A stretch of 64,000 nucleotides of DNA, from the NCBI GenBank assembly GCA_963808625.1, contig CAWEHK010000052.1, forward strand, positions 1 to 64,000, written 5' to 3'. Below the pieces are notes generated by a model. It saw only the letters and a list, made by a program, of their open reading frames with translations. It did not search any database and was not told the origin of the DNA. Shown in pieces: positions 36,034-45,557 of the stretch. Both the position numbers and the translations under genes were made by a program. How positions within the stretch are numbered: the stretch's first letter is position 1; each line of letters starts with the position of its first letter. This DNA comes from an uncultured delta proteobacterium. GTDB lineage: Bacteria; Desulfobacterota; Syntrophobacteria; Syntrophobacterales; Syntrophobacteraceae.

Positions 36034-37345
36034 TCAAACCTCATTTTGCCGGCGAAGATCTTCAATGCGGCGGGAAGGTTTCAGCGCCTCGAAGGAGCCT
36101 TTCTCTTTCAAACGAATTTTTACGGGAACTCCCAGTTCCTGCGTCAGTTCCTTGCCCAGGCGCAGGCAGAGCTTTTCCATCTCTTTTACTTCGTCCGAGA
36201 AGAGGGCCTCATCCACGTTCAGCCAGACTTCCAGGAAGTCCCGGAGGTCCTCGCTGCGAATCAGAAAGCGGCAGGCATCGGGAAGGTACCCCAGCGTTCT
36301 CTCGAGGAGATAGAGAATCTGTTGATGGTGGATCTTGACGCCTCGGATGACCATCATCTCATCGGTACGGGAGGGAAGCCATGCGATGCGCGAGAGGCTG
36401 CGCCCGCACGGGCAGGTTCCGGGCAGGAGCCGGACCTGGTCTCCCGTGCGCAGGCGAACGAGGGGAAAAGCCCGGGTGGTGAGGGTTGTCAACACCAGCT
36501 CTCCCGCCGCCCCTTCCGGGACCCGTTGACCCGTTTCCGGATCGACCACCTCGGGAAAGAAGTGGTCCTCGCTGACGTGGAGTCCCTGGCGTGCTTCGCA
36601 TTCGAAGGCCAGAGCCGGTCCCGGTACTTCGCTCAGGCCGTAGTGCACCCAGGTTTTCACGTGAAGCTCCTCCCTGAGGCGCTCCTGGATGGCGGCATCA
36701 GGCGGCTCTCCCACGAGGATGACTGTTTTCAGGGCCAGTTCATTGGGATTCAGATTGGCTCGAAATACCAGGTGCATCATCTGCGTTGCCGCCGCATGAC
36801 TGGTAATCAGGACCGAAGTCTTGTAGTCGCGCAGCAGCATGAGCTGTTTTTCCGGGGTCAGGATCGTCTGCGGGATGACACTGCTCTCGATGGCTTCCGC
36901 CCCATCCTTGTAGGCTCGTCCCCAATTGATGAGACCGGCGTCCAGATCGATCTGCAGAATGTCGTTTTTCGAGACCCCGGCGGCAAAGAGACGCACGGGC
37001 CACCAGTTCTCGCGAGACCCCGAGGTCCTGCTTGGTGTAGCCGCTCACGGTCGGCTTCGAGGCGCTCCCCTGGGCGGTATGGATGCGCACCACATCGCGC
37101 AGGGGGACGGCAAAGAGGCCATAGGGATAGTTCTCACTGAAATGCTCGCGCGCGGTAAACGGAATGTGCTGCAGGTCGGAGAGAGCTTCCATGCGCGCGG
37201 GTTCCATCCCATTTGCCTGAAACAGGTTCCGGTAGAAAGGGACGTTCCGATACGCGCGGTTCAGCGTGCTCTGGAGTCTTTCCAGTTGCAGTTGGGCGCG
37301 CTCTTCCCCATCCAGGCATTCTTCCCTGGCATTCCAAATGGGCAT
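36034..37345 (-). CDS. Divergent phenylacetate-CoA ligase-like paralog (frameshift ~36995)
   Basis: LQLERLQSTL, PFT..YPYGLFAVP, YGLSE, EDHFFPEVVDP, RLRTGD, IRGV; P-loop altered to HTAQGSASKP. Confidence 0.85.
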
Positions 37346-37348
37346 GGC

Positions 37349-38092
37349 TCAGGCCCTCCCTTCATAGAATTCACGATAATCCTTGCCCAAATAGGCCCGC
37401 TTCACATCCTGGTCCGCCAGCAAATCTCCGGCCGCCCCATCGAGCACAATCTGACCGTTTTCCAAAACATAGCCGCGATCGGCGATTTGCAGGGCGGCTC
37501 GAGCATTCTGTTCGATCAGCAGAATGGTCATGCCCTGTTCTTTAAGCTGTAACAGGGTGTCCAGGATCAGGCGCACGAGGACCGGGGCCAGCCCCATCGA
37601 CGGTTCATCCAGGAGCATGAGGCGCGGACGCGCCATGAGCGCACGACCGATGGCGAGCATCTGCTGTTCGCCGCCGGACAGGGTCCCGGCGGGTTGTGCG
37701 GTGCGATCGCGAAGCACCGGAAACAGGTCCATAACGGTTTCCAGGTCCGCGGCGACGGCCTGATGGTCGCGCTTTCGATAGCGCAGGTAGGCGCCCAGCC
37801 GGAGGTTGTCGAGAACGCTCATGGGCGCGAACAGCAACCGTCCTTCCGGCACCATCGAAATCCCCCGCTGAACGATAGCGGGAGGCTTAAAGCCTCGAAG
37901 AGACGCTTTCTCAAAAAGAATCTCCCCTTCCCAGTGTGTGATGAGGCCGCAGATCGCCTGGAGCAGCGTGCTTTTCCCGGCGCCGTTCGCGCCGATGAGG
38001 GCGATGAGCTCGCCTTCCCGAACCGAGAGGCTGACGCCGTTGATCGCGCGGATCTTGCCATAGTAGCACTTCAGGTTACGAATGCGCAGCAT
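37349..38092 (-). CDS. LivF-type ABC ATPase
   Basis: GANGAGKST, LSGGEQQML, LLDEPSMGLAP, IEQN. Confidence 0.93.
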   Translation of the reverse strand: MLRIRNLKCYYGKIRAINGVSLSVREGELIALIGANGAGKSTLLQAICGLITHWEGEILFEKASLRGFKPPAIVQRGISMVPEGRLLFAPMSVLDNLRLGAYLRYRKRDHQAVAADLETVMDLFPVLRDRTAQPAGTLSGGEQQMLAIGRALMARPRLMLLDEPSMGLAPVLVRLILDTLLQLKEQGMTILLIEQNARAALQIADRGYVLENGQIVLDGAAGDLLADQDVKRAYLGKDYREFYEGRA

Positions 38093-38093
38093 C

Positions 38094-38906
38094 TCAACTC
38101 AGCCCTCTCATATCTTCCTCACTGCCCAGGTAGGCGCAAATGACCGAGTCATTGCACTGAATCTCCCGGGGCGTGCCTTCCGCAAGTTTTTGTCCCTGGT
38201 GCAGCACCACGATTTTGTCTGAAATGCCCATCGTCAGGTCCATATCATGTTCGACGAGAAGGAGCGTGATCCCGCGTGCCCGGACTTGCCGGAGCAGCTC
38301 TCCAAGACGCTGGGTTTCCACCGCATTGAGGCCGGAAGCGGGTTCATCCAGGAGCAGCAGGCGCGGTTGCGTGGCCAGGGCCCGGGCAATCTCAAGAAAT
38401 CGCTGCCAGCCGAAAGGCAGATCGGCGCTGCGGTGATCGGCCATCTTTTCCAGGCCGACAAACTGCAATAATTCCCAAGCGTAATCCCGAGCTTCCCGCT
38501 CCTCCCTCCGCACCCCGGGCCAGCGACCGATAGCTCCCCAGAACCCGCAGCGCATCCGCACATGCCGGCCAACCAGGACGTTTTCAAGGACCGTCATACT
38601 GCCGAAGAGTTCGACATTCTGAAAGGTGCGGGAGATCCCCTGCGCTACTATTTCGTGGACCTTGTTCCCTTGAATTTCTCTATTTTCATAGACGATCTGC
38701 CCATCTTCGGGTTCGTAGGCCCCGGTGATCACATTGAAGAGCGTCGTCTTCCCCGCGCCATTTGGGCCAATCAGCGCGTGGATAGACCCGGGCGCAACCT
38801 CGAAGGTGACATTGTAAAGTGCCTGGATGCCGCCAAAGGATTTGCCGATGGCTTTAACCTCGAGGAGTGGTTGGGAAGTTTCGGTAGTCGGATCACGGTC
38901 GTTCAT
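38094..38906 (-). CDS. LivG-type ABC ATPase (alternative start 39011)
   Basis: GPNGAGKTT, RTFQN, LLDEPASG, VEHDM. Confidence 0.92.
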   Translation of the reverse strand: MNDRDPTTETSQPLLEVKAIGKSFGGIQALYNVTFEVAPGSIHALIGPNGAGKTTLFNVITGAYEPEDGQIVYENREIQGNKVHEIVAQGISRTFQNVELFGSMTVLENVLVGRHVRMRCGFWGAIGRWPGVRREEREARDYAWELLQFVGLEKMADHRSADLPFGWQRFLEIARALATQPRLLLLDEPASGLNAVETQRLGELLRQVRARGITLLLVEHDMDLTMGISDKIVVLHQGQKLAEGTPREIQCNDSVICAYLGSEEDMRGLS

Positions 38907-38925
38907 GAGGCATAGCTCTTGGCTC

Positions 38926-39922
38926 TTAGCTCTTGGCGGTTGGGGGTTGGTGGTTGGCGGTTGGCTCTCGGGAGGCCGCAGGTTGCCGATAGAGGGTCCC
39001 CGATCGTTCATAAAGATCCAGCAGGCCGCGCGTTAAACCCTGGGGAAGAAAAATCATGATGGTCATGAGAATGAGTCCGTAGACGACCATTTCGTAATCC
39101 GTGAAGACATGGAGCCACTCCGGAAGCATGGTCAAGAGCGATGCGCCCAGCAGTGATCCCCAGATACTGGCCATTCCGCCAATAACGACCATGGTCACAA
39201 GCCGGACTGACACTAAAAAATCAAAAGAATTCGGACTGATAAAGCTGACGAGATGGGCGTATAAAAAACCTGCGAGAGCGGCAAACAGGGCGCTTAACAC
39301 AAAGACCCCAATCTTCAAGCGGCTGGTGTCAATGCCCATTGCCGCAGCCACGTGCTCACCGTCATGAATGGCCCGCAGGCGCCCTTCCCACGCGGGAATC
39401 AACGAGGCGCTCACACACCACGAAGCAGATCAGGACCACCGCCCAAACCAGGAAGAAATAAGCCCTTCCCGAGGTGAGAGGGAGCGGTCCGAGAGTCAGT
39501 GAAGGAATTCCCACCAGCCCGGAATCGCCACCGGTTACGGTGCTCCATTGGCGAATGAGAATGAAGGTGATCATGCCAAACCCTAAGGTGCCCATGCCGA
39601 GATAGTAACCGGAAAGCTTCAGCATCGGCACGGCCACCAGAAAAGCGACCAGCGTGGTCAGAAGAATGGCTGCCGGAAGCGCCAGCCACGGTGACCAGTT
39701 CATCGTGGCAGTGAGAACCGCAGTGGTGTAAGCCCCCAGTCCATAAAAAGCGGCATGACCAAGAGAGATTTGCCCGGCATACCCCATCAGCATATTAAGT
39801 CCCAAGGCAAGCAGGGTATTGATGCCAATAAAGGTCAGGAGCTGCAGATGATAGGAGTTGGTAATCGCCACACCGGCCAGCACAATGGCCAGCAGGAAGA
39901 GCCCATGTCTCAGCTTGCTCAT
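38926..39922 (-). CDS. LivM-type ABC permease (frameshift ~39390)
   Basis: GYAGQISLGHAAF, TGGDSG, MVVIGG, PQG. Confidence 0.9.
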
Positions 39923-40016
39923 AGGACTGAATCACCTTGAAGGAGTGGTTAGTGGGAGTCACTAGCCACCATCTACCAGCCACTAGCCACTAATCACCAG
40001 CCACTAGCCACTATCT

Positions 40017-40893
40017 CTAAAACCGATGCACGGCCTTGACTCCGAGCAGGCCACTCGGACGGGCATAAAGAATGAGGAGCAGCAGGAAAAAGGCAATGGC
40101 ATCCTTGAGGCTTGAAGAAAAGAAGCCTACCCCCAGGGCCTCCAGAATTCCCAGGAGGTTCCCCCGAGCACCGCCCCCCAGGAACTTCCCAGTCCTCCCA
40201 GCATCGCCGCGCAGAAACCCTTCAGGCCCAGCATCATCCCCATATCGTAACTGCTCATGGTGATCGGAGCAATGAGGACCCCTCCGATGCTCCCCATCCC
40301 TGCGCTCATGGCAAAGGCCAGAAGGACCATGCGCTCGCTGGGGATACCCAGGAGTGACGCCGCTCGTCTTGTTGATGGCACAAGCCTCCATGGCCTTTCC
40401 GGTCAGGGTCTTTCGATAAAATAGTTGCAGGCCAGTCACAATGATGAGAACGACTGCCAGAATCCACAGGCTCTGGGGCAGCAAGGTCGCTCCGGCAATT
40501 TCGATAGGCGCATGGTGGGTAAAAGACGGGGCACTGTGAGCATCCTTTCCCCAGAAGAGCATGGCCAGGCCTCGCAGCAAAATCGAGGCGCCGATGGTAA
40601 TGATTACCAGGACAATCGGATGGGGTTTACGGACCGTGCGAATGGCCAGACGCTCGAGCAGCAGCCCCACCACGCGAGACCCCGACCACCGAAAGGAAAA
40701 ACGCCGCAAGCAGCGGCAGACGACAACCCTTCCAGAAGGTTATCATACTGAGCGCCCCCAGCATCACAAATTCACCCTGGGCGAAATTGATCAGCCCGGT
40801 GGCGTTGTAAAGCATGGTAAAACCCAGGGCGATGACGGCGTAGATCGCGCCATTCGTCAGGCCTGAAAACAGGTATTGAAGAAATTCCTGCAT
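40017..40893 (-). CDS. LivH-type ABC permease (frameshifted)
   Basis: YAVIALG, INFAQGEF, KGF.AAMLGG, RPSGL. Confidence 0.9.
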
Positions 40894-42122
40894 CAGACAA
40901 GCCGCATTCTAAAACCTAAAGGCCGAGAGTTAAAGCCAAAGCCAAGAGCCAACTCATTGCCGAGCAGTTTCCAGGTTCCTTTTTGAATTTGCACCATCAC
41001 AAAGGCATCCGCGCCCAGACCATTGTGGTCCTGCGGTGAGAAGTTAAAGGTGCCGGTGACTCCCACATGTCCCTTAAGTTTTTCCAGGGCGTCACGGAGT
41101 TTTTCCTTATTGCCCTCGGTGCCCGGCAGGGCCTCCGCCAGCAGGTGCATGGCGTCATAGGCGTAGCCTCCAAAGCCGGAGACGGGCATTTGAAAACGCT
41201 TCTCAAATTGTTCGATATACTTGAGCAGCACGGCTCTTTTGCGGGTCGGTGTCGGGCAGTTGCTGGGCGACCAGGATCTTTCCGGTGGGAAGGAAAATCC
41301 CTTCCGCGGCATCCCCGGCCAGTTCCAGGAATTTGGGAGAAGCCACGCCGTGGCTTTGATAGAGCGGGATTTTGATATTCATCTGCTGAATATTCTTGGC
41401 AATGACCGCCGGACCGGGATTGGTTCCCCAGCAGATGATGGCCTGAGGTTGGGCCGAGCGGATTTTGGTCAACTGTGCCGTCATGTCCGTGTCTTTGGCG
41501 CCGAAGCTTTCCGCCTGAACGATCTCGATGCCATACTTGCGCGGCCTGCGCCTGGAGTTGTTCCTTGCCGCTTTCACCGAAGGCATTCTCGACCGTTAGA
41601 ATCCCTATCTTCTTGATATTCTGCTTTTGCATGTGCTGGTAAATGGCGGCCACGGCCAGGACGTCGTTCTGGGCCGTCTTGAACACCCAGGGTTTGATCG
41701 GTTCGGTGATCTTGATCCCGGCAGCACAACTGATCAGGGGGATCTTCTCTTTTTCCACAATCGGCACAATGGCCAGGGTCGTCGGGCGTGAGACTGGGAC
41801 CGACGATAGCGAGAACATTGTCCTTGCTGATGAGTTTGTTGGTGGCGAGCACGGTCTTCGTGGGGTCCCCTTCGGTGTCATAGATCACCGCTTCCAGGGG
41901 ATGGCCGTCGATACCTCCCTGGGCGTTGATCTCATCAACCACCATCTCCATGCTTTTCTTTTCCGGATCTCCCAGAAAAGAACTGGGACCCGTAATGGCA
42001 AAAATCCCCCCGATCTTATAGGCCTCTTTGGACCAGCTCACCGATGGCGTTCCGCGCGATTGACAGGGCCAGCACCAAGGCCATCAAGACACTTCCTTCA
42101 ACATGGCTCCGTTCGGTTTCAT
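40893..42122 (-). CDS. LivJ/K-type periplasmic substrate-binding protein (frameshifted)
   Basis: KIGGIFAITGP, INAQGGIDG, DMTAQLTKIR, GVTGTFNFS..DHNG; TGATG overlap with the next gene. Confidence 0.88.
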
Positions 42123-42143
42123 GACGGTCTCCTCAGCGCCATT

Positions 42144-42575
42144 TTACATGGCATAAAGTCGCTCTCCGTCAATCACTTTTACCCCATTTTCCAACAAGAC
42201 CTTTACCGCTTCGTCCAGATTATCGAAGCGGAAGATAATGACCGCATTGTTGCCGCTCTGCTGAACAAACGCATACATGTACTCGACATTGACATTGGCT
42301 TTGAAAAGAATCTGCAGGATGTGGTGAAGACCACCCGGGCGATCATCCACCTCGACCGCCACCACATCGGTCTTCCCCACCGTAAATCCGTGTTTCTTCA
42401 GGGCTTCAACCGCTTTGACATGGTCGTTTACGATCAGCCGCAGGATGCCGAAATCGGAGGTATCAGCAAGCGACAGGGCCCGGATGTTGATTGCTGCCTC
42501 GGTGAGGATACCGGTGACTTCCGAAAGGCGACCCGCCTTGTTCTCCAGAAAGACTGAAATCTGTTCTACTCGCAT
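42144..42575 (-). CDS. Tandem ACT-domain protein
   Basis: [42 protein letters not shown]. Confidence 0.93.
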
Positions 42576-42685: not shown

Positions 42686-43987
42686 TTAGAATTTGCGATT
42701 ATCAATAACTCGCTGCGCCTTCCCTTCACTTCTCGGGATGCTCTTCGGCTCGACCAGTTTTACCCTGGCGGAAACTCCCAGGTATTCTTTGATATTCTTG
42801 GAGATCTTCTTCTCAAGATCCTGCAGTTTTCGGACTTCATCCGAAAAGGTCTGCTCTCCCACTTCAACCATGACGGTGAGAATATCCAGGGTACCTTCTC
42901 TGTCCACGACCAGTTGGTAATGAGGCTCAACCCACCGCATCTCCATCAGGACACTCTCGATTTGCGATGGAAACACGTTGACTCCGCGAATGATGAGCAT
43001 GTCGTCGGTCCTTCCCGTCACCCGATTCATGCGCACGTGGGTCCGCCCGCAGATGCACGGGTCGGCATTGAGGGAAGTGACGTCGCGGGTCCGATAACGG
43101 ATGATCGGGAACGCTTCTTTGGTAATCGAGGTGAACACCAATTCCCCCTGCGTACCGTAGGGCAGAACTTCGCCGCTTTGAGGGTCGATCACTTCCGGGA
43201 TGAAATGGTCCTCAAAGATGTGGAGCCCGCTCTTCGCCTGCAGGCATTCGATGGAAACCCCCGGCCCCATCACCTCGCTTAATCCGTAAATGTCGATAGC
43301 ATTCAAATGGAGTTTTCGCTCAATCTCATTGCGCATGTTCTGCGACCACGGTTCGGCGCCAAAAATGCCGGATTTGAACTTCAGGTCTTCGAACCCGATG
43401 CCGTTTTCCGCCGCGACTTCCGCCAGGTGAAGGGCATAAGATGGCGTGCAGGTGAGGATCGTCGGGCCGAAGTCCTTCATGATGAGGATCTGACGTTTGG
43501 TGTTCCCGCCGGAGATCGGGATAACCGATGCTCCCAGACGTTCTGCCCCGTAGTGGATGCCGAGACCGCCGGTGAAGAGCCCATAGCCATAAGCATTGTG
43601 AATGATGTCCCCGCGGGAAGCGCCCCCGGCGACCAGGGCGCGGGCCATGAGTTCCGCCCAGGTATCGATATCCCGCGCGGTATAGCCAACCACCGTGGGC
43701 TTGCCGGTCGTTCCGGATGATGCATGGATGCGCACCACGTTATCCATCGGTACGGCGAACATGCCGAAGGGGTAATTGTCTCGCAAATCCTGCTTGGTGG
43801 TGAACGGGAGGCGCTGCAGGTCGTTCAGAGTCTTGATATCAGCAGGACGGATGCCGACCTCGTCAAATTTCTTCCGATAGAATGGCACCGTCGCGTAAAC
43901 CCGCTGGGCAGTGGCTTGCAGCCGGCGCAATTGAATGGCTTCGAGTGCCTCCCGGGGCAGGGTTTCGAATTCGATGTTATAGATCAT
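42686..43987 (-). CDS. paaK: Phenylacetate--CoA ligase
   Basis: [57 protein letters not shown]. Confidence 0.95.
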
Positions 43988-44236
43988 GCGGTTTCGTCCT
44001 CCTTTCTTTTATCCACGAAGTCACACGAAGATCACGAAAACACACTAAGAACAAACCTCTGTTTCTGCCTTCGTGTTGCTTCGTGAGCATTCGTGGATCG
44101 TTTTTCCTTTATCCACGAAGACACACGAAGATGAACGAAGAGCCACGAAGGTCAACGAAGACAAACCAATGGAAGTGAAGGAACAATTCGTGTCACTTCG
44201 TTCTCTTTTCTTCGTGTGCATTCGTGGATCGCTTTC

Positions 44237-44272
44237 AAAAAAAAAGCCGTGGAATCTGGGAATCCACGGCTT
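44237..44272 (-). terminator. Attenuator terminator T2
   Basis: Minus strand AAGCCGTGGA-loop-TCCACGGC followed by T9. Confidence 0.85.
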
Positions 44273-44281
44273 CACAAAAGC

Positions 44282-44321
44282 AAAAAAACCATGGGTTCCG
44301 CAGTGTGCCTACCCATGGTTT
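44282..44321 (-). terminator. Attenuator terminator T1
   Basis: Minus strand AAACCATGGGT-loop-ACCCATGG followed by T7. Confidence 0.85.
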
Positions 44322-44346
44322 CAGTCGGTGTCCGGTCCGGTTCAGC

Positions 44347-44430
44347 CTACTTCGCCCCACAGGCAGGCTTACTGAAATAAAAGCCTCCCCCAAAACAAAA
44401 ACGGTACAAGTAATAGAACCGGTTAATCAT
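44347..44430 (-). CDS. Phe/Tyr-rich leader peptide (27 aa)
   Basis: MINRFYYLYRFCFGGGFYFSKPACGAK* with 5 Phe and 4 Tyr; GAGGG SD; lies directly before two terminators and paaK. Confidence 0.85.
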   Translation of the reverse strand: MINRFYYLYRFCFGGGFYFSKPACGAK

Positions 44431-44469
44431 GCTGCCCTCGCAACAAAATATTTCCTCACCTTACCGGCA

Positions 44470-44499
44470 ATGATTACCGAGTTTGCAGACCTCTGTCAA
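44470..44499 (-). promoter_or_regulatory. Putative sigma70 promoter of the leader/paaK operon
   Basis: Minus strand TTGACA-17 nt-TAATCA(T); the -10 element is imperfect. Confidence 0.5.
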
Positions 44500-44571
44500 T
44501 ACCAAAAGAACCGCGCCACAAGATGGGCGCTCAAGATGGCAGGTAAGAAACTATATCAAAGCTCGCTCACC

Positions 44572-44643
44572 CCGTCACCCCGGCGGAAGCCTGGGTCCAG
44601 AATCCCTGGAAAAACTTGGATTCCGGCTTTCGCCGGAATGACG
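44572..44643. repeat. REP-like doublet
   Basis: CGTCACCCCGGCGGAAGCCTGGGTCCAG ... TGGATTCCGGCTTTCGCCGGAATGACG; same family as 27846-27915. Confidence 0.8.
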
Positions 44644-44694
44644 ACCAGTGGCGTTTCGAGCACTTTGAGATAATTCCCAAGCGGTCGCCCGCAA

Positions 44695-44818
44695 CTGCCT
44701 CCAGCCACTGACCACTGTTCACTGCCTACTCCTTACTCCTTACTCCCTACTCCCTACTGCTTACTGCTTACTGCTTACTCCATACTGCCTACTCCTTACT
44801 GCCTACTCCCTACTCCCT
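44695..44818. repeat. Heptamer tandem repeat tract (TACTCCY/TACTGCY)
   Basis: About 15 imperfect 7-mers just past a stop codon. Similar tracts at ~8033-8075, 38910-38965, 39960-40012, 50549-50605 and 62602-62655. Confidence 0.85.
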
Positions 44819-45557
44819 ACTGCTCACTGCCCTTCTGAGCGGTCGGTGCCTTCATCTTGGAGTTCAGGGATGCGCGCTCATCCTGAAGAAGGGCGGGACT
44901 GGGGTAGTTGCCTGGAGCTTTGAGCAATATTTCATACTGTTCGGCAGCTTTTGCGTATTCGCCTTTTTGGGCGTACAGCCTCGCGAGGTTCCAGTCCGCT
45001 TCTTTCTTGAGCTCTGAGGACTCGGTCCCTTTCAGATTGTTCCAGAGGGCTATCGCCTCATCCGTTTTGCCAAGAGCTTCGTAAGTGAATGCCTGTTGAT
45101 ACTGGGCCAGGATCTTGAGACCCTGGTCGCCCGCGGCCTGATCGAGCACTTTCTTGTTCCAGTTTAGAGCGTTTTCGTATTGCTGGATTTGAAAATAAGC
45201 ACGCGCCAAGTCAAGTTGTGCATCCTTGACCGGTGCGGTTCCGGAATGGTCCGCAAGAAACTTTTCCAGTTCCGGGATGAGCTTTTCCCATGCCTGGCGG
45301 GTACTATTGTCGTCCCCGGGCCATCTTTGCAGCACTTTTGCGTAGTCAACCTGTGCCCGCCGCTCCTTGGACTGGCCATAGGCATTGAATCCCCAAAAGC
45401 CGCCCAGAACCAAACAGAGGGCCACCAGCCCGGCAAGGATCCGGTTAAAGTGCTGCTCGATCCATTCTTTCGAAAAGGCGGGGGTGGCCGCAAGCTCCAG
45501 GGCCTTTTGTGCCTTCAGGGCTTCCTTTTTCGGAATTTTGATCTTCTTTATTCCCAA
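44817..45557 (-). CDS. Membrane-anchored TPR protein (YfgM-like)
   Basis: A single TM segment followed by TPR-like helices. Confidence 0.75.

Follow-up and report, generated by a model that had tools for sequence, protein, structure and literature searches.

A phenylalanine-rich leader with two interlocking terminators is a candidate attenuator of a paaK and ABC transporter operon in a syntrophobacterial genome

How, and in response to what, might RNA polymerase get past two intrinsic terminators in series to reach the gene beyond them? The question is raised by a locus in an uncultured delta proteobacterium of the family Syntrophobacteraceae (GenBank assembly GCA_963808625.1, contig CAWEHK010000052.1, positions 1 to 64,000; this whole stretch of 64,000 nucleotides (nt) is referred to as the window), in which a short open reading frame (ORF) and two terminators, T1 and T2, lie upstream of paaK. 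A preliminary description of the locus proposed that the ORF encodes the leader peptide of an attenuator that senses both Phe and Tyr, and that a single stalled ribosome disables both terminators. The parts that it listed, namely an unannotated ORF of 27 amino acids (aa) with nine Phe/Tyr codons, the two terminators and then paaK, are all present on the minus strand. Our best explanation of the whole, to which we assign a probability of roughly 0.7 on the strength of the sequence comparisons given below, is that the locus is a tRNA-Phe-sensing attenuator that would control paaK-ACT-livKHMGF-paaK2 by means of a six-segment RNA chain. The class of mechanism is a textbook one; what sets the locus apart from hisL, pheL, pheM and aroR, the nearest systems in logic, is the middle hairpin that doubles as a terminator, the interlocking of T1 and T2 through shared arms, the lineage, and the operon. 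The features of the locus are as follows.

44499..44471, minus strand: sigma-70-like promoter, with -35 TTGACA at 44499-44494, a 17-nt spacer and -10 TAATCA at 44476-44471
44439..44347, minus strand: leader gene, with the Shine-Dalgarno (SD) sequence GAGGG at 44439-44435, ATG at 44430, 27 codons and the stop codon TAG at 44349-44347
44422..44337, minus strand: outer helix P0, in which CCGGTTC (44422-44416) pairs with GAACCGG (44343-44337) in the minimum-free-energy fold
44390..44381, minus strand: segment 1, GGGGAGGCUU, codons 14-17, with AGGCTT at 44386-44381; pairs with segment 2
44370..44357, minus strand: segment 2, AAGCCT / GCCTGCCTGTGG, AAGCCUGCCUGUGG; its partner is segment 1 or, in the antiterminator, segment 3
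44320..44282, minus strand: T1, a hairpin at 44320-44287 (segment 3, loop, segment 4) followed by U7 at 44288-44282
44320-44307, minus strand: segment 3, the 5' arm of T1, AACCAUGGGU plus AGGC; 44318-44307 is CCATGGGTAGGC
44296-44287, minus strand: segment 4, the 3' arm of T1, ACCCAUGGUU; 44294-44286 is CCATGGTTT
44303..44256, minus strand: 4:5 anti-T2 hairpin, CUG.GGAA.CCAUGGUUUU (44303-44285) with GAAGCCGUGG.UUCC.CAG (44273-44256)
44273..44237, minus strand: T2, a hairpin at 44272-44244 (segment 5, loop, segment 6) followed by U9 at 44245-44237
44272-44263, minus strand: segment 5, the 5' arm of T2, AAGCCGUGGA; 44272-44264 is AAGCCGTGG
44253-44244, minus strand: segment 6, the 3' arm of T2, UCCACGGCUU
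43987..42686, minus strand: paaK, 433 aa, phenylacetate-CoA ligase family (Pfam AMP-binding and AMP-binding_C_2), the first gene under the proposed control

The leader ORF (44430-44347, minus strand) encodes the 27-aa peptide MINRFYYLYRFCFGGGFYFSKPACGAK, in which codons 5, 11, 13, 17 and 19 specify Phe (n = 5) and codons 6, 7, 9 and 18 specify Tyr (n = 4). The distance from the promoter to the leader ATG is 40 nt. (Note that a scan tool reads the promoter as TTGACA-18-AATCAT, with 10 of 12 matches.) The ORF, complete with SD sequence and start codon, thus stands between a promoter and the genes proposed to be under its control. The alternative pairings that had been named (1:2, 2:3, and the 3' arm of T1 with the 5' arm of T2) can all be drawn as described: 2:3 shares segment 3 with T1 and 4:5 shares segment 5 with T2, and in the untranslated RNA P0 encloses 1:2. 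Moreover, the Phe codons are enriched where a ribosome of the assumed footprint would mask segment 1 and spare segment 2. The 231-nt leader RNA folds at -84.7 kcal/mol (z-score of -3.98), an energy that none of 200 dinucleotide shuffles matched.

From this arrangement we infer that the ribosome stalls, that the segments fold in a particular order, that T1 and T2 both terminate transcription and that the operon responds to the physiological state. The transcription start would lie some 30 nt before the ATG of the leader. With ample Phe the ribosome would reach the UAG, 7 nt past segment 2, and would cover segment 2; with zero translation P0 and 1:2 would lock segment 2. Either way, 3:4 (T1) and 5:6 (T2) would form, and polymerase would stop at T1, with those molecules that escape stopping at T2. 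When tRNA-Phe is scarce the ribosome would stall at Phe codons 11, 13 and 17 around segment 1, with Tyr codon 18 alongside, so that segment 1 would be masked and segment 2, left free, would capture segment 3 on its emergence to give the 12-bp helix 2:3. Segment 4, now unpaired, would capture segment 5 before segment 6 is made, giving a 4:5 hairpin of 9 to 17 bp; neither terminator would form and polymerase would read into paaK. If the element works in this way, it would be a classical attenuator wired so that one decision disables two serial terminators. Such wiring would be a simple way to multiply repression while keeping inducibility, and would be relevant both to the study of RNA regulation and to the design of synthetic switches.

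The leader is widely conserved. Matches to its DNA were found with blastn in 22 of 41 genomes including its own (21 of 40 relatives; 7/7 genomes of the genus and 19/24 of the family), and conservation this broad at the blastn level is unusual for intergenic DNA. The gene directly after the leader is paaK in 19 of 20 loci, with protein identity of 80-95%, and the TPR-repeat gene precedes the leader in 18 of 20. A covariance model that spans segment 1 to T2 (R1) matches 90 of the 96 genomes of the order at E ≤ 1e-3, with a best match at E ≤ 1e-12 in 73 of the 96; an even sampling of the phylum included 147 genomes from outside the order, 25 of which match at E ≤ 1e-6. Of the nine extra-order matches inspected, a single one is a Phe-rich leader linked to paaK; seven are followed by other genes of aromatic pathways or by genes for binding proteins, and the last by another ORF. 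The double-terminator design is conserved from the genus up to the level of the phylum. (Note that a scan of contigs with a degenerate DNA pattern was too loose, since it gave at least 120 stretches, and only one of the 80 examined, L094, matched R1.)

Orthologs of the leader were collected in an alignment (A3) of 51 sequences, of which 50 are distinct; pairing statistics refer to the 50 distinct sequences. The expectation that relatives would conserve the leader ORF is borne out, as a Phe-rich ORF follows a purine-rich stretch in 51/51 orthologs. (An automatic ORF picker found at least five Phe codons in 47/51; it took the wrong frame or start in several orthologs, namely L027, L043, L047, L204, L205, L212 and L217, and the Phe-rich frames of L204, L205, L212 and L217 were read directly from the sequences.) The promoter keeps its position in all of the 30 orthologs examined for it, with a perfect TTGACA, a spacer of 17-18 nt and a TAnnnn -10 element. 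With ORF, SD sequence and helices conserved among the 51 orthologs and the promoter in 30 of 30, the element is very probably what the preliminary description took it to be, a ribosome-mediated (leader-peptide) transcription attenuator.

As regards the amino acid sensed, the comparison does not bear out the proposal that both Phe and Tyr are read. Phe makes up 24.5% of leader residues across the 51 orthologs, whereas 25/51 leaders have no Tyr codon and only 13/51 have two or more. Because so many leaders lack Tyr codons altogether, Phe appears to be the conserved signal, and the four Tyr codons of the window are a local feature. Of these four, only Tyr18 is so placed that a ribosome stalled at it would leave segment 2 free; co-sensing of Tyr is possible in the species of the window, and it is not conserved in the orthologs.

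The leaders range from 17 to 39 residues, and the ORF ends 4-25 nt beyond segment 2, except in one large genus, where it ends after segment 1 and before segment 2. The codons for KPACG, at the C terminus of the peptide, fall on segment 2 and are conserved at each of their three positions; outside KPACG the peptide retains its Phe richness only, with no conservation of sequence. We also considered that the locus might be a self-contained gene, complete with promoter and terminators, for a small RNA or a small hydrophobic peptide, and that its adjacency to paaK is incidental or serves some other purpose. Such a gene would account for the conserved promoter and the two terminators (a transcript of roughly 180-225 nt would be expected in the OFF state) and, were the peptide the product, for the conserved KPACG. 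But the overlap of KPACG with segment 2, together with conservation at every codon position, argues for a constraint on the RNA rather than on the peptide, and a functional peptide fits poorly with a remainder that varies so freely in sequence and length. The strict synteny with paaK also argues against it, as do the paralogous leaders described below, in which Phe gives way to Tyr or Trp to match the pathway downstream, and we regard a small RNA or peptide gene as very unlikely.

The helices differ in how firmly their pairing is recorded in the alignment. Pairing in the 12-bp antiterminator 2:3 is at 98.7%; two of its pairs have undergone compensatory change (CG to UA in 12 sequences, UA to CG in 4), and many further changes pass through wobble pairs; its covariation score exceeds those of 500/500 shuffles and of all slid controls, and the RNAalifold consensus is 2:3, not T1. 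The T1 stem is 97.3% paired, and two of its eight pairs covary (UA to CG in 3 sequences). For T2 the values are 96.6% and seven of ten pairs, and segment 6 is freer to vary than segment 5. P0 is 86.5% paired in an alignment of 19 sequences, with five of its seven pairs changed on both sides, and 1:2 is weaker, at 76.9% (76.9-83.9% over the alignments of relatives). The hairpin 4:5, which in the window reaches 17 bp, has a 6-bp core, CCAUGG:CCGUGG, that is 96-100% paired; its extension, GGAA:UUCC, is 66-92% paired in relatives, and the outer CUG:CAG is not conserved (35.8% paired). Covariation is thus seen in 2:3, T1, T2 and P0; the earlier suggestion that compensatory changes would be found in every helix fails for the 4:5 core, in which the changes are one-sided and preserve pairing through wobble, as taken up below.

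We then compared the competing structures by their folding energies. In the window, 1:2 has an energy of -13.2 kcal/mol, 2:3 of -18.8 kcal/mol when bare and -27.4 kcal/mol with its inner structure, T1 of -18.0 kcal/mol, T2 of -19.2 kcal/mol, and 4:5, with segments 3 and 6 unavailable, of -21.8 kcal/mol. With a ribosome at Phe17, 2:3 plus 4:5 comes to -69.8 kcal/mol, 2:3 plus T2 to -66.8 kcal/mol and T1 plus T2 to -55.9 kcal/mol. Across the 51 orthologs the means are -28.9 kcal/mol for 2:3, -16.9 kcal/mol for T1, -19.8 kcal/mol for T2 and -19.1 kcal/mol for 4:5, the stability of which therefore matches that of T2; shuffled 4:5 regions average -12.3 kcal/mol, and the z-score of 4:5 is below -2 in 39/51. 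Summed, the OFF state comes to about -50 kcal/mol (1:2 of the window plus the ortholog means of T1 and T2) and the ON state (2:3 plus 4:5) to about -48 kcal/mol, so that the two are roughly balanced in energy.

Folding was also performed with the bases under the ribosome masked, for RNA that had emerged before segment 4 and with an assumed footprint of -15 to +12 nt. In the absence of a ribosome this RNA forms P0 and 1:2, and termination is expected. With the A-site at any of codons 2-18 the fold is 2:3; at codons 11-18, segment 1 lies under the footprint and 2:3 has the lowest energy. From codon 19 to the stop codon segment 2 is masked.

The proposed passing of one decision to a more distant terminator has a precedent, although the preliminary description knew of no described example. 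In the his operon leader (hisL) of Salmonella and E. coli, a single leader peptide acts on a remote terminator by way of a six-segment chain of hairpins, with A:B, C:D and E:F in the OFF state and B:C and D:E in the ON state, and the terminator is the last hairpin only. The logic of the window is the same, with three OFF-state hairpins (1:2, 3:4 and 5:6) set against two ON-state hairpins between neighbouring arms (2:3 and 4:5). It differs in that the last hairpin is not the only terminator, T1 being followed by U7, and also in the amino acid, the lineage and the regulated genes; the two have no sequence relationship. Among the orthologs the middle hairpin varies in this respect. The 8 nt after T1 contain at least six U residues in 29/51, five in 9/51 and four or fewer in 13/51 (examples of the last are TGAGTTGC, AATTTCAA and TCGGATGT), and these 13 are his-like.

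In the 13 orthologs that lack a U-run after T1, this hairpin should be unable to terminate, which would leave T2, the tail of which is U-rich in 51/51 (5-9 U residues in the 9-base window counted), as the sole terminator. Since T2 sits more than 60 nt past segment 2, the leader could reach it only through 2:3, which would free segment 4, and then 4:5. Because the his-like orthologs would need 4:5, the relay from segment 2 to T2 can be taken as the general mechanism of the family, and T1 as a second terminator would be a feature of particular lineages; in the genus of the window, where the middle hairpin has a full U-run, one decision would thus govern two terminators. With a 4:5 core that is 96-100% paired, a hairpin as stable as T2 and a need for it in 13/51 orthologs, the coupling of T1 to T2 put forward in the preliminary description is supported, and we consider it fairly likely that this relay is functional.

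One alternative is that the attenuator is real and acts on T1 only, with T2 an independent terminator, uncontrolled or serving as a leaky back-up, and with 4:5 a by-product of duplication. The T1 and T2 stems are indeed similar, and near-identical in the paralogs described below, so that their complementarity across 4:5 may have arisen in just this manner. Moreover, changes in the 4:5 core are all one-sided, keeping a wobble or Watson-Crick pair and never altering both sides, an invariance that is compatible with a relay and is no proof of one; and when the extended 4:5 was compared with 500 shuffles, 59 reached its percentage paired and 172 its covariation score, so that 4:5 is unproven by covariation alone. 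If T2 were uncontrolled, however, a strong terminator would stand between the leader and paaK in 51/51 orthologs. In other genera paaK starts roughly 20-50 nt past T2, which leaves no room for a separate promoter, and an uncontrolled T2 would therefore block expression (in the window, where the spacer is longer, a promoter scan found no promoter-like site between T2 and paaK). Control of T1 alone also sits badly with the orthologs in which T2 is the sole terminator, with the extension of an equally stable 4:5 by GGAA:UUCC outside the shared stem core, and with the freer variation of segment 6 than of segment 5. An attenuator confined to T1 is accordingly unlikely.

The behaviour of 4:5 just described weighs against a relayed attenuator, as do several other observations. 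When the RNA ends at the T1 stem, T1 is the equilibrium minimum-energy fold at all stall positions tested, and for RNA up to T2 the equilibrium minimum is T1 plus T2 at all codons except 16-17; the switch therefore rests on assumed co-transcriptional kinetics, as it does in classical systems. Most of the Tyr codons of the window leader, and two of its Phe codons, are too far upstream for the classical masking geometry. A simple terminator scan listed neither T1 nor T2 and gave two other weak sites upstream; T1 and T2 were missed because their loops (14 and 9 nt) exceed the 3-8 nt limit of the scan. In Rfam, neither Phe_leader (RF01859) nor other leader families matched within 43500-45200, even at E up to 10. 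A search for RNA runs returned four, one of them with 0.04 of the sampled words, and it is stored as contigs, which cannot show transcript ends. Finally, the assembly changes frame in LivH near 40680, in LivM near 39384 and in paaK2 near 36991, and the frame of the binding-protein gene is interrupted. These interruptions may be assembly indels in a metagenome-assembled genome (84.6% complete) rather than true pseudogenes; because there are frameshifts in several operon genes, single-base details such as the lengths of the U-runs are possibly imperfect.

Leaders that respond to Phe are known from other bacteria. In E. coli, pheL-pheA and pheM-pheST have leaders rich in Phe codons at which stalling on scarce tRNA-Phe decides a competition between terminator and antiterminator (PMC11802643). 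What the window has in common with these systems is the Phe-rich leader, the proposed stalling and the competing hairpins; they have a single terminator and four segments, whereas the window has two terminators and six segments, and they control pheA and pheST rather than an operon for a phenylacetate-CoA ligase and an ATP-binding cassette (ABC) transporter. The aroR-aroF leader of Corynebacterium glutamicum contains a Phe-Tyr-Phe motif and is reported to respond to limitation of Phe, not of Tyr (Neshat et al. 2014, as summarised in PMC11802643). Codons 17-19 of the window leader also read Phe-Tyr-Phe, which fits with Phe as the conserved signal, and paralogous leaders in this lineage likewise precede DAHP synthases; aroR belongs to another phylum and has another downstream gene, and a double terminator is not mentioned in that portion of PMC11802643. 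Full-text literature searches, which left subscription journals uncovered so that an older description is possible, found no description of the element of the window or of leader-peptide attenuation in the phylum, and the accessible portion of a delta-proteobacterial regulon reconstruction (PMC545781) contains neither "leader peptide" nor "aromatic". Leader-peptide attenuation would thus be extended to a phylum for which these searches found no published report.

The weaker R1 matches proved to be related attenuators, and all 23 of the 23 examined have the same double terminator. In these paralogs the T1 and T2 stems are both close to GCCGUGGG/CCCACGGC, and a 4:5 hairpin of roughly 7-16 bp is found in 23/23, with a z-score of -2.0 or lower in 18/23. 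They fall into classes: Tyr-rich or Phe/Tyr-rich leaders that precede a LivK-like binding protein, Trp-rich leaders that precede DAHP synthase, Trp-rich leaders that precede TrpB2, and Tyr/Phe-rich leaders that precede an AroFGH-type DAHP synthase. (Note that the downstream genes were named from their N-termini, and that NCBIfam confirmed one TrpB2-like enzyme and one AroFGH-type synthase.) The fact that the codon bias of the leader tracks the downstream pathway argues for sensing by the ribosome.

These paralogs bear on the possibility that antitermination is brought about without a ribosome, by a protein, by a tRNA in the manner of a T-box or by a small ligand, the Phe-rich ORF being a by-product of U-rich sequence. 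A U-rich region does by itself favour codons for Phe, Tyr, Cys and Leu, the operon encodes a protein with ACT (amino-acid-binding) domains, and the sequence of the arms is conserved beyond what pairing alone needs. But Trp-rich leaders, the codon of which is UGG and so not U-rich, precede Trp-pathway genes, and the SD sequence, start codon and open frame are kept in 51/51 orthologs, with the stop at or just past segment 2. Furthermore, when 43500-45200 was searched with the Rfam models by cmscan at E up to 10, the 11 matches returned all scored far short of their gathering scores and none was to a T-box or riboswitch model. We therefore regard antitermination of this kind as very improbable.

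In the genome of the window itself, a scan for tandem terminators gave 106 pairs among 4668 hairpins, and a second scan looked for leaders rich in aromatic residues. The candidate leaders that these scans added are listed below, after a Tyr-rich one on contig C10.

C10:70121-79911 (loci L002 and L228): second candidate attenuator of the genome, with the Tyr-rich leader MNCALSEEILYYYGYFGRSVPAALRL (…EEILYYYGYFG…), with two interlocking terminators
C37:21673-21769, minus strand: YYRYYY leader with tandem terminators, preceding DAHP synthase (NCBIfam)
C33:50714-50805, plus strand, and C33:186151-186242, minus strand: two YYRYYY leaders with tandem terminators, preceding ORFs that begin like DAHP synthase (N-terminus only)
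C21:130844-130917, minus strand: WCWWW (Trp-rich) leader with tandem terminators, preceding DAHP synthase
C42:17775-17810, minus strand: YFRYYYF leader, apparently with one terminator, preceding chorismate mutase/prephenate dehydratase; found by the aromatic-rich leader scan

A crude and noisy scan of the same genome for leaders rich in any single residue gave no convincing non-aromatic leader, which is weak evidence. The leader on C10 precedes genes for a binding protein, LivH, LivM, LivG, LivF, a PaaK-like ligase, IorA and IorB, and this locus would link indolepyruvate:ferredoxin oxidoreductase (IOR) to control by Tyr starvation. (In other families of the phylum, four loci, L237, L239, L240 and L243, have …GGYYFGWFYYAGV… leaders with a double terminator, and the gene that follows them encodes a 264-aa protein beginning MVGKRIRLERIMDR…, which may resemble AroA', the ADH synthase of the alternative entry into the shikimate pathway.)

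Attenuators of this type raise expression at shortage, and here the control is shared with the entry enzymes of aromatic biosynthesis; we therefore infer that the operons supply Phe and Tyr. Regulation and gene content together suggest that they do so by uptake and by activating aryl acids, which IOR would then carboxylate reductively. Thus, the idea in the preliminary description that the operon departs from the rule that attenuation controls biosynthesis is probably mistaken, since paralogous attenuators tie PaaK, IorAB and the ABC transporter to aromatic supply. A physiological rationale is offered by Methanococcus maripaludis, which is reported to make aromatic amino acids from aryl acids with the help of indolepyruvate oxidoreductase (Porat et al., cited in PMC4162585). 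The counterparts here are PaaK-like ligases, IorAB and an ABC transporter, which would be under Phe/Tyr-starvation attenuators. M. maripaludis is an archaeon, and the function proposed for the present operons derives from regulation and gene content. To our knowledge, no attenuator has been described for its aryl-acid route.

A wider reading, which we put forward tentatively and at somewhat less than even odds, is that of an "aromatic attenuon", a phylum-wide family of attenuators in which a single stall would be relayed through interlocking arms to two serial terminators, and in which the paaK-ACT-liv and paaK-iorAB clusters would be anabolic. Its members would include DAHP synthase isozymes, ADH synthase, chorismate mutase/prephenate dehydratase, TrpB2 and two ABC-transporter/PaaK (+IorAB) operons. 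In this case regulation would serve as a clue to function, as many anaerobes carry paaK-ACT-ABC and ABC-paaK-iorAB clusters, for which the usual annotation is branched-chain amino-acid transport and phenylacetate degradation. If the attenuators work as proposed, such clusters would be induced, alongside DAHP synthases, by a lack of Phe or Tyr, pointing to uptake of aromatics or synthesis from aryl acids; and if the wider reading is true, the "phenylacetate degradation" clusters of anaerobes would take up aryl acids and make Phe and Tyr from them.

The genes on either side of the leader, and the spacer that separates it from paaK, are as follows.

45557-44817, minus strand: TPR-repeat gene, the upstream neighbour of the leader region
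44231..44011, minus strand: repeat spacer that separates T2 from the ribosome-binding site of paaK; its CACGAAG/CTTCGTG repeats make up a pair of long, imperfect hairpins
42575..36034, minus strand: remainder of the operon, encoding the ACT-pair protein, a LivK-like binding protein, LivH, LivM, LivG, LivF and a second PaaK-like ligase
42575-42144, minus strand: ACT-pair protein, 143 aa, with two ACT domains (Pfam ACT_8)
37345-36049, minus strand: paaK2, the second PaaK-like ligase

The paaK ortholog scores 634.5 bits against TIGR02155, just below the cut-off of 646.3. In complete relatives the order of the operon is paaK, ACT-pair, LivK-like binding protein, LivH, LivM, LivG, LivF and PaaK-like ligase, with the ACT-pair gene always directly after paaK; the ACT-pair protein may partner the ligase or the transporter as a sensor of amino acids. 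As a separate observation, copies of IorA elsewhere in this genome also appear split. The hairpins of the spacer span about 220 nt of repeats with a period of 10 nt and fold at -92.7 kcal/mol (z-score of -4.97). At the site between T2 and paaK they are specific to the genus, and 31 similar repeat clusters are scattered through the genome of the window; the spacer is therefore a dispersed element resembling repetitive extragenic palindromes (REP) or miniature inverted-repeat transposable elements (MITE).

Among the Rfam matches mentioned above, that of TEG147 to the T1 hairpin was set aside as chance-like (25.9 bits versus a gathering score of 56.1 bits). Lastly, between the TPR gene and the leader promoter there is a tandem array with a 7-nt unit (44833-44721; about 14 copies of AGTAAGG/AGTAGGG on the minus strand), an 11-mer of which, AGTAAGGAGTA, occurs 42 times in the genome when about 2 occurrences are expected.

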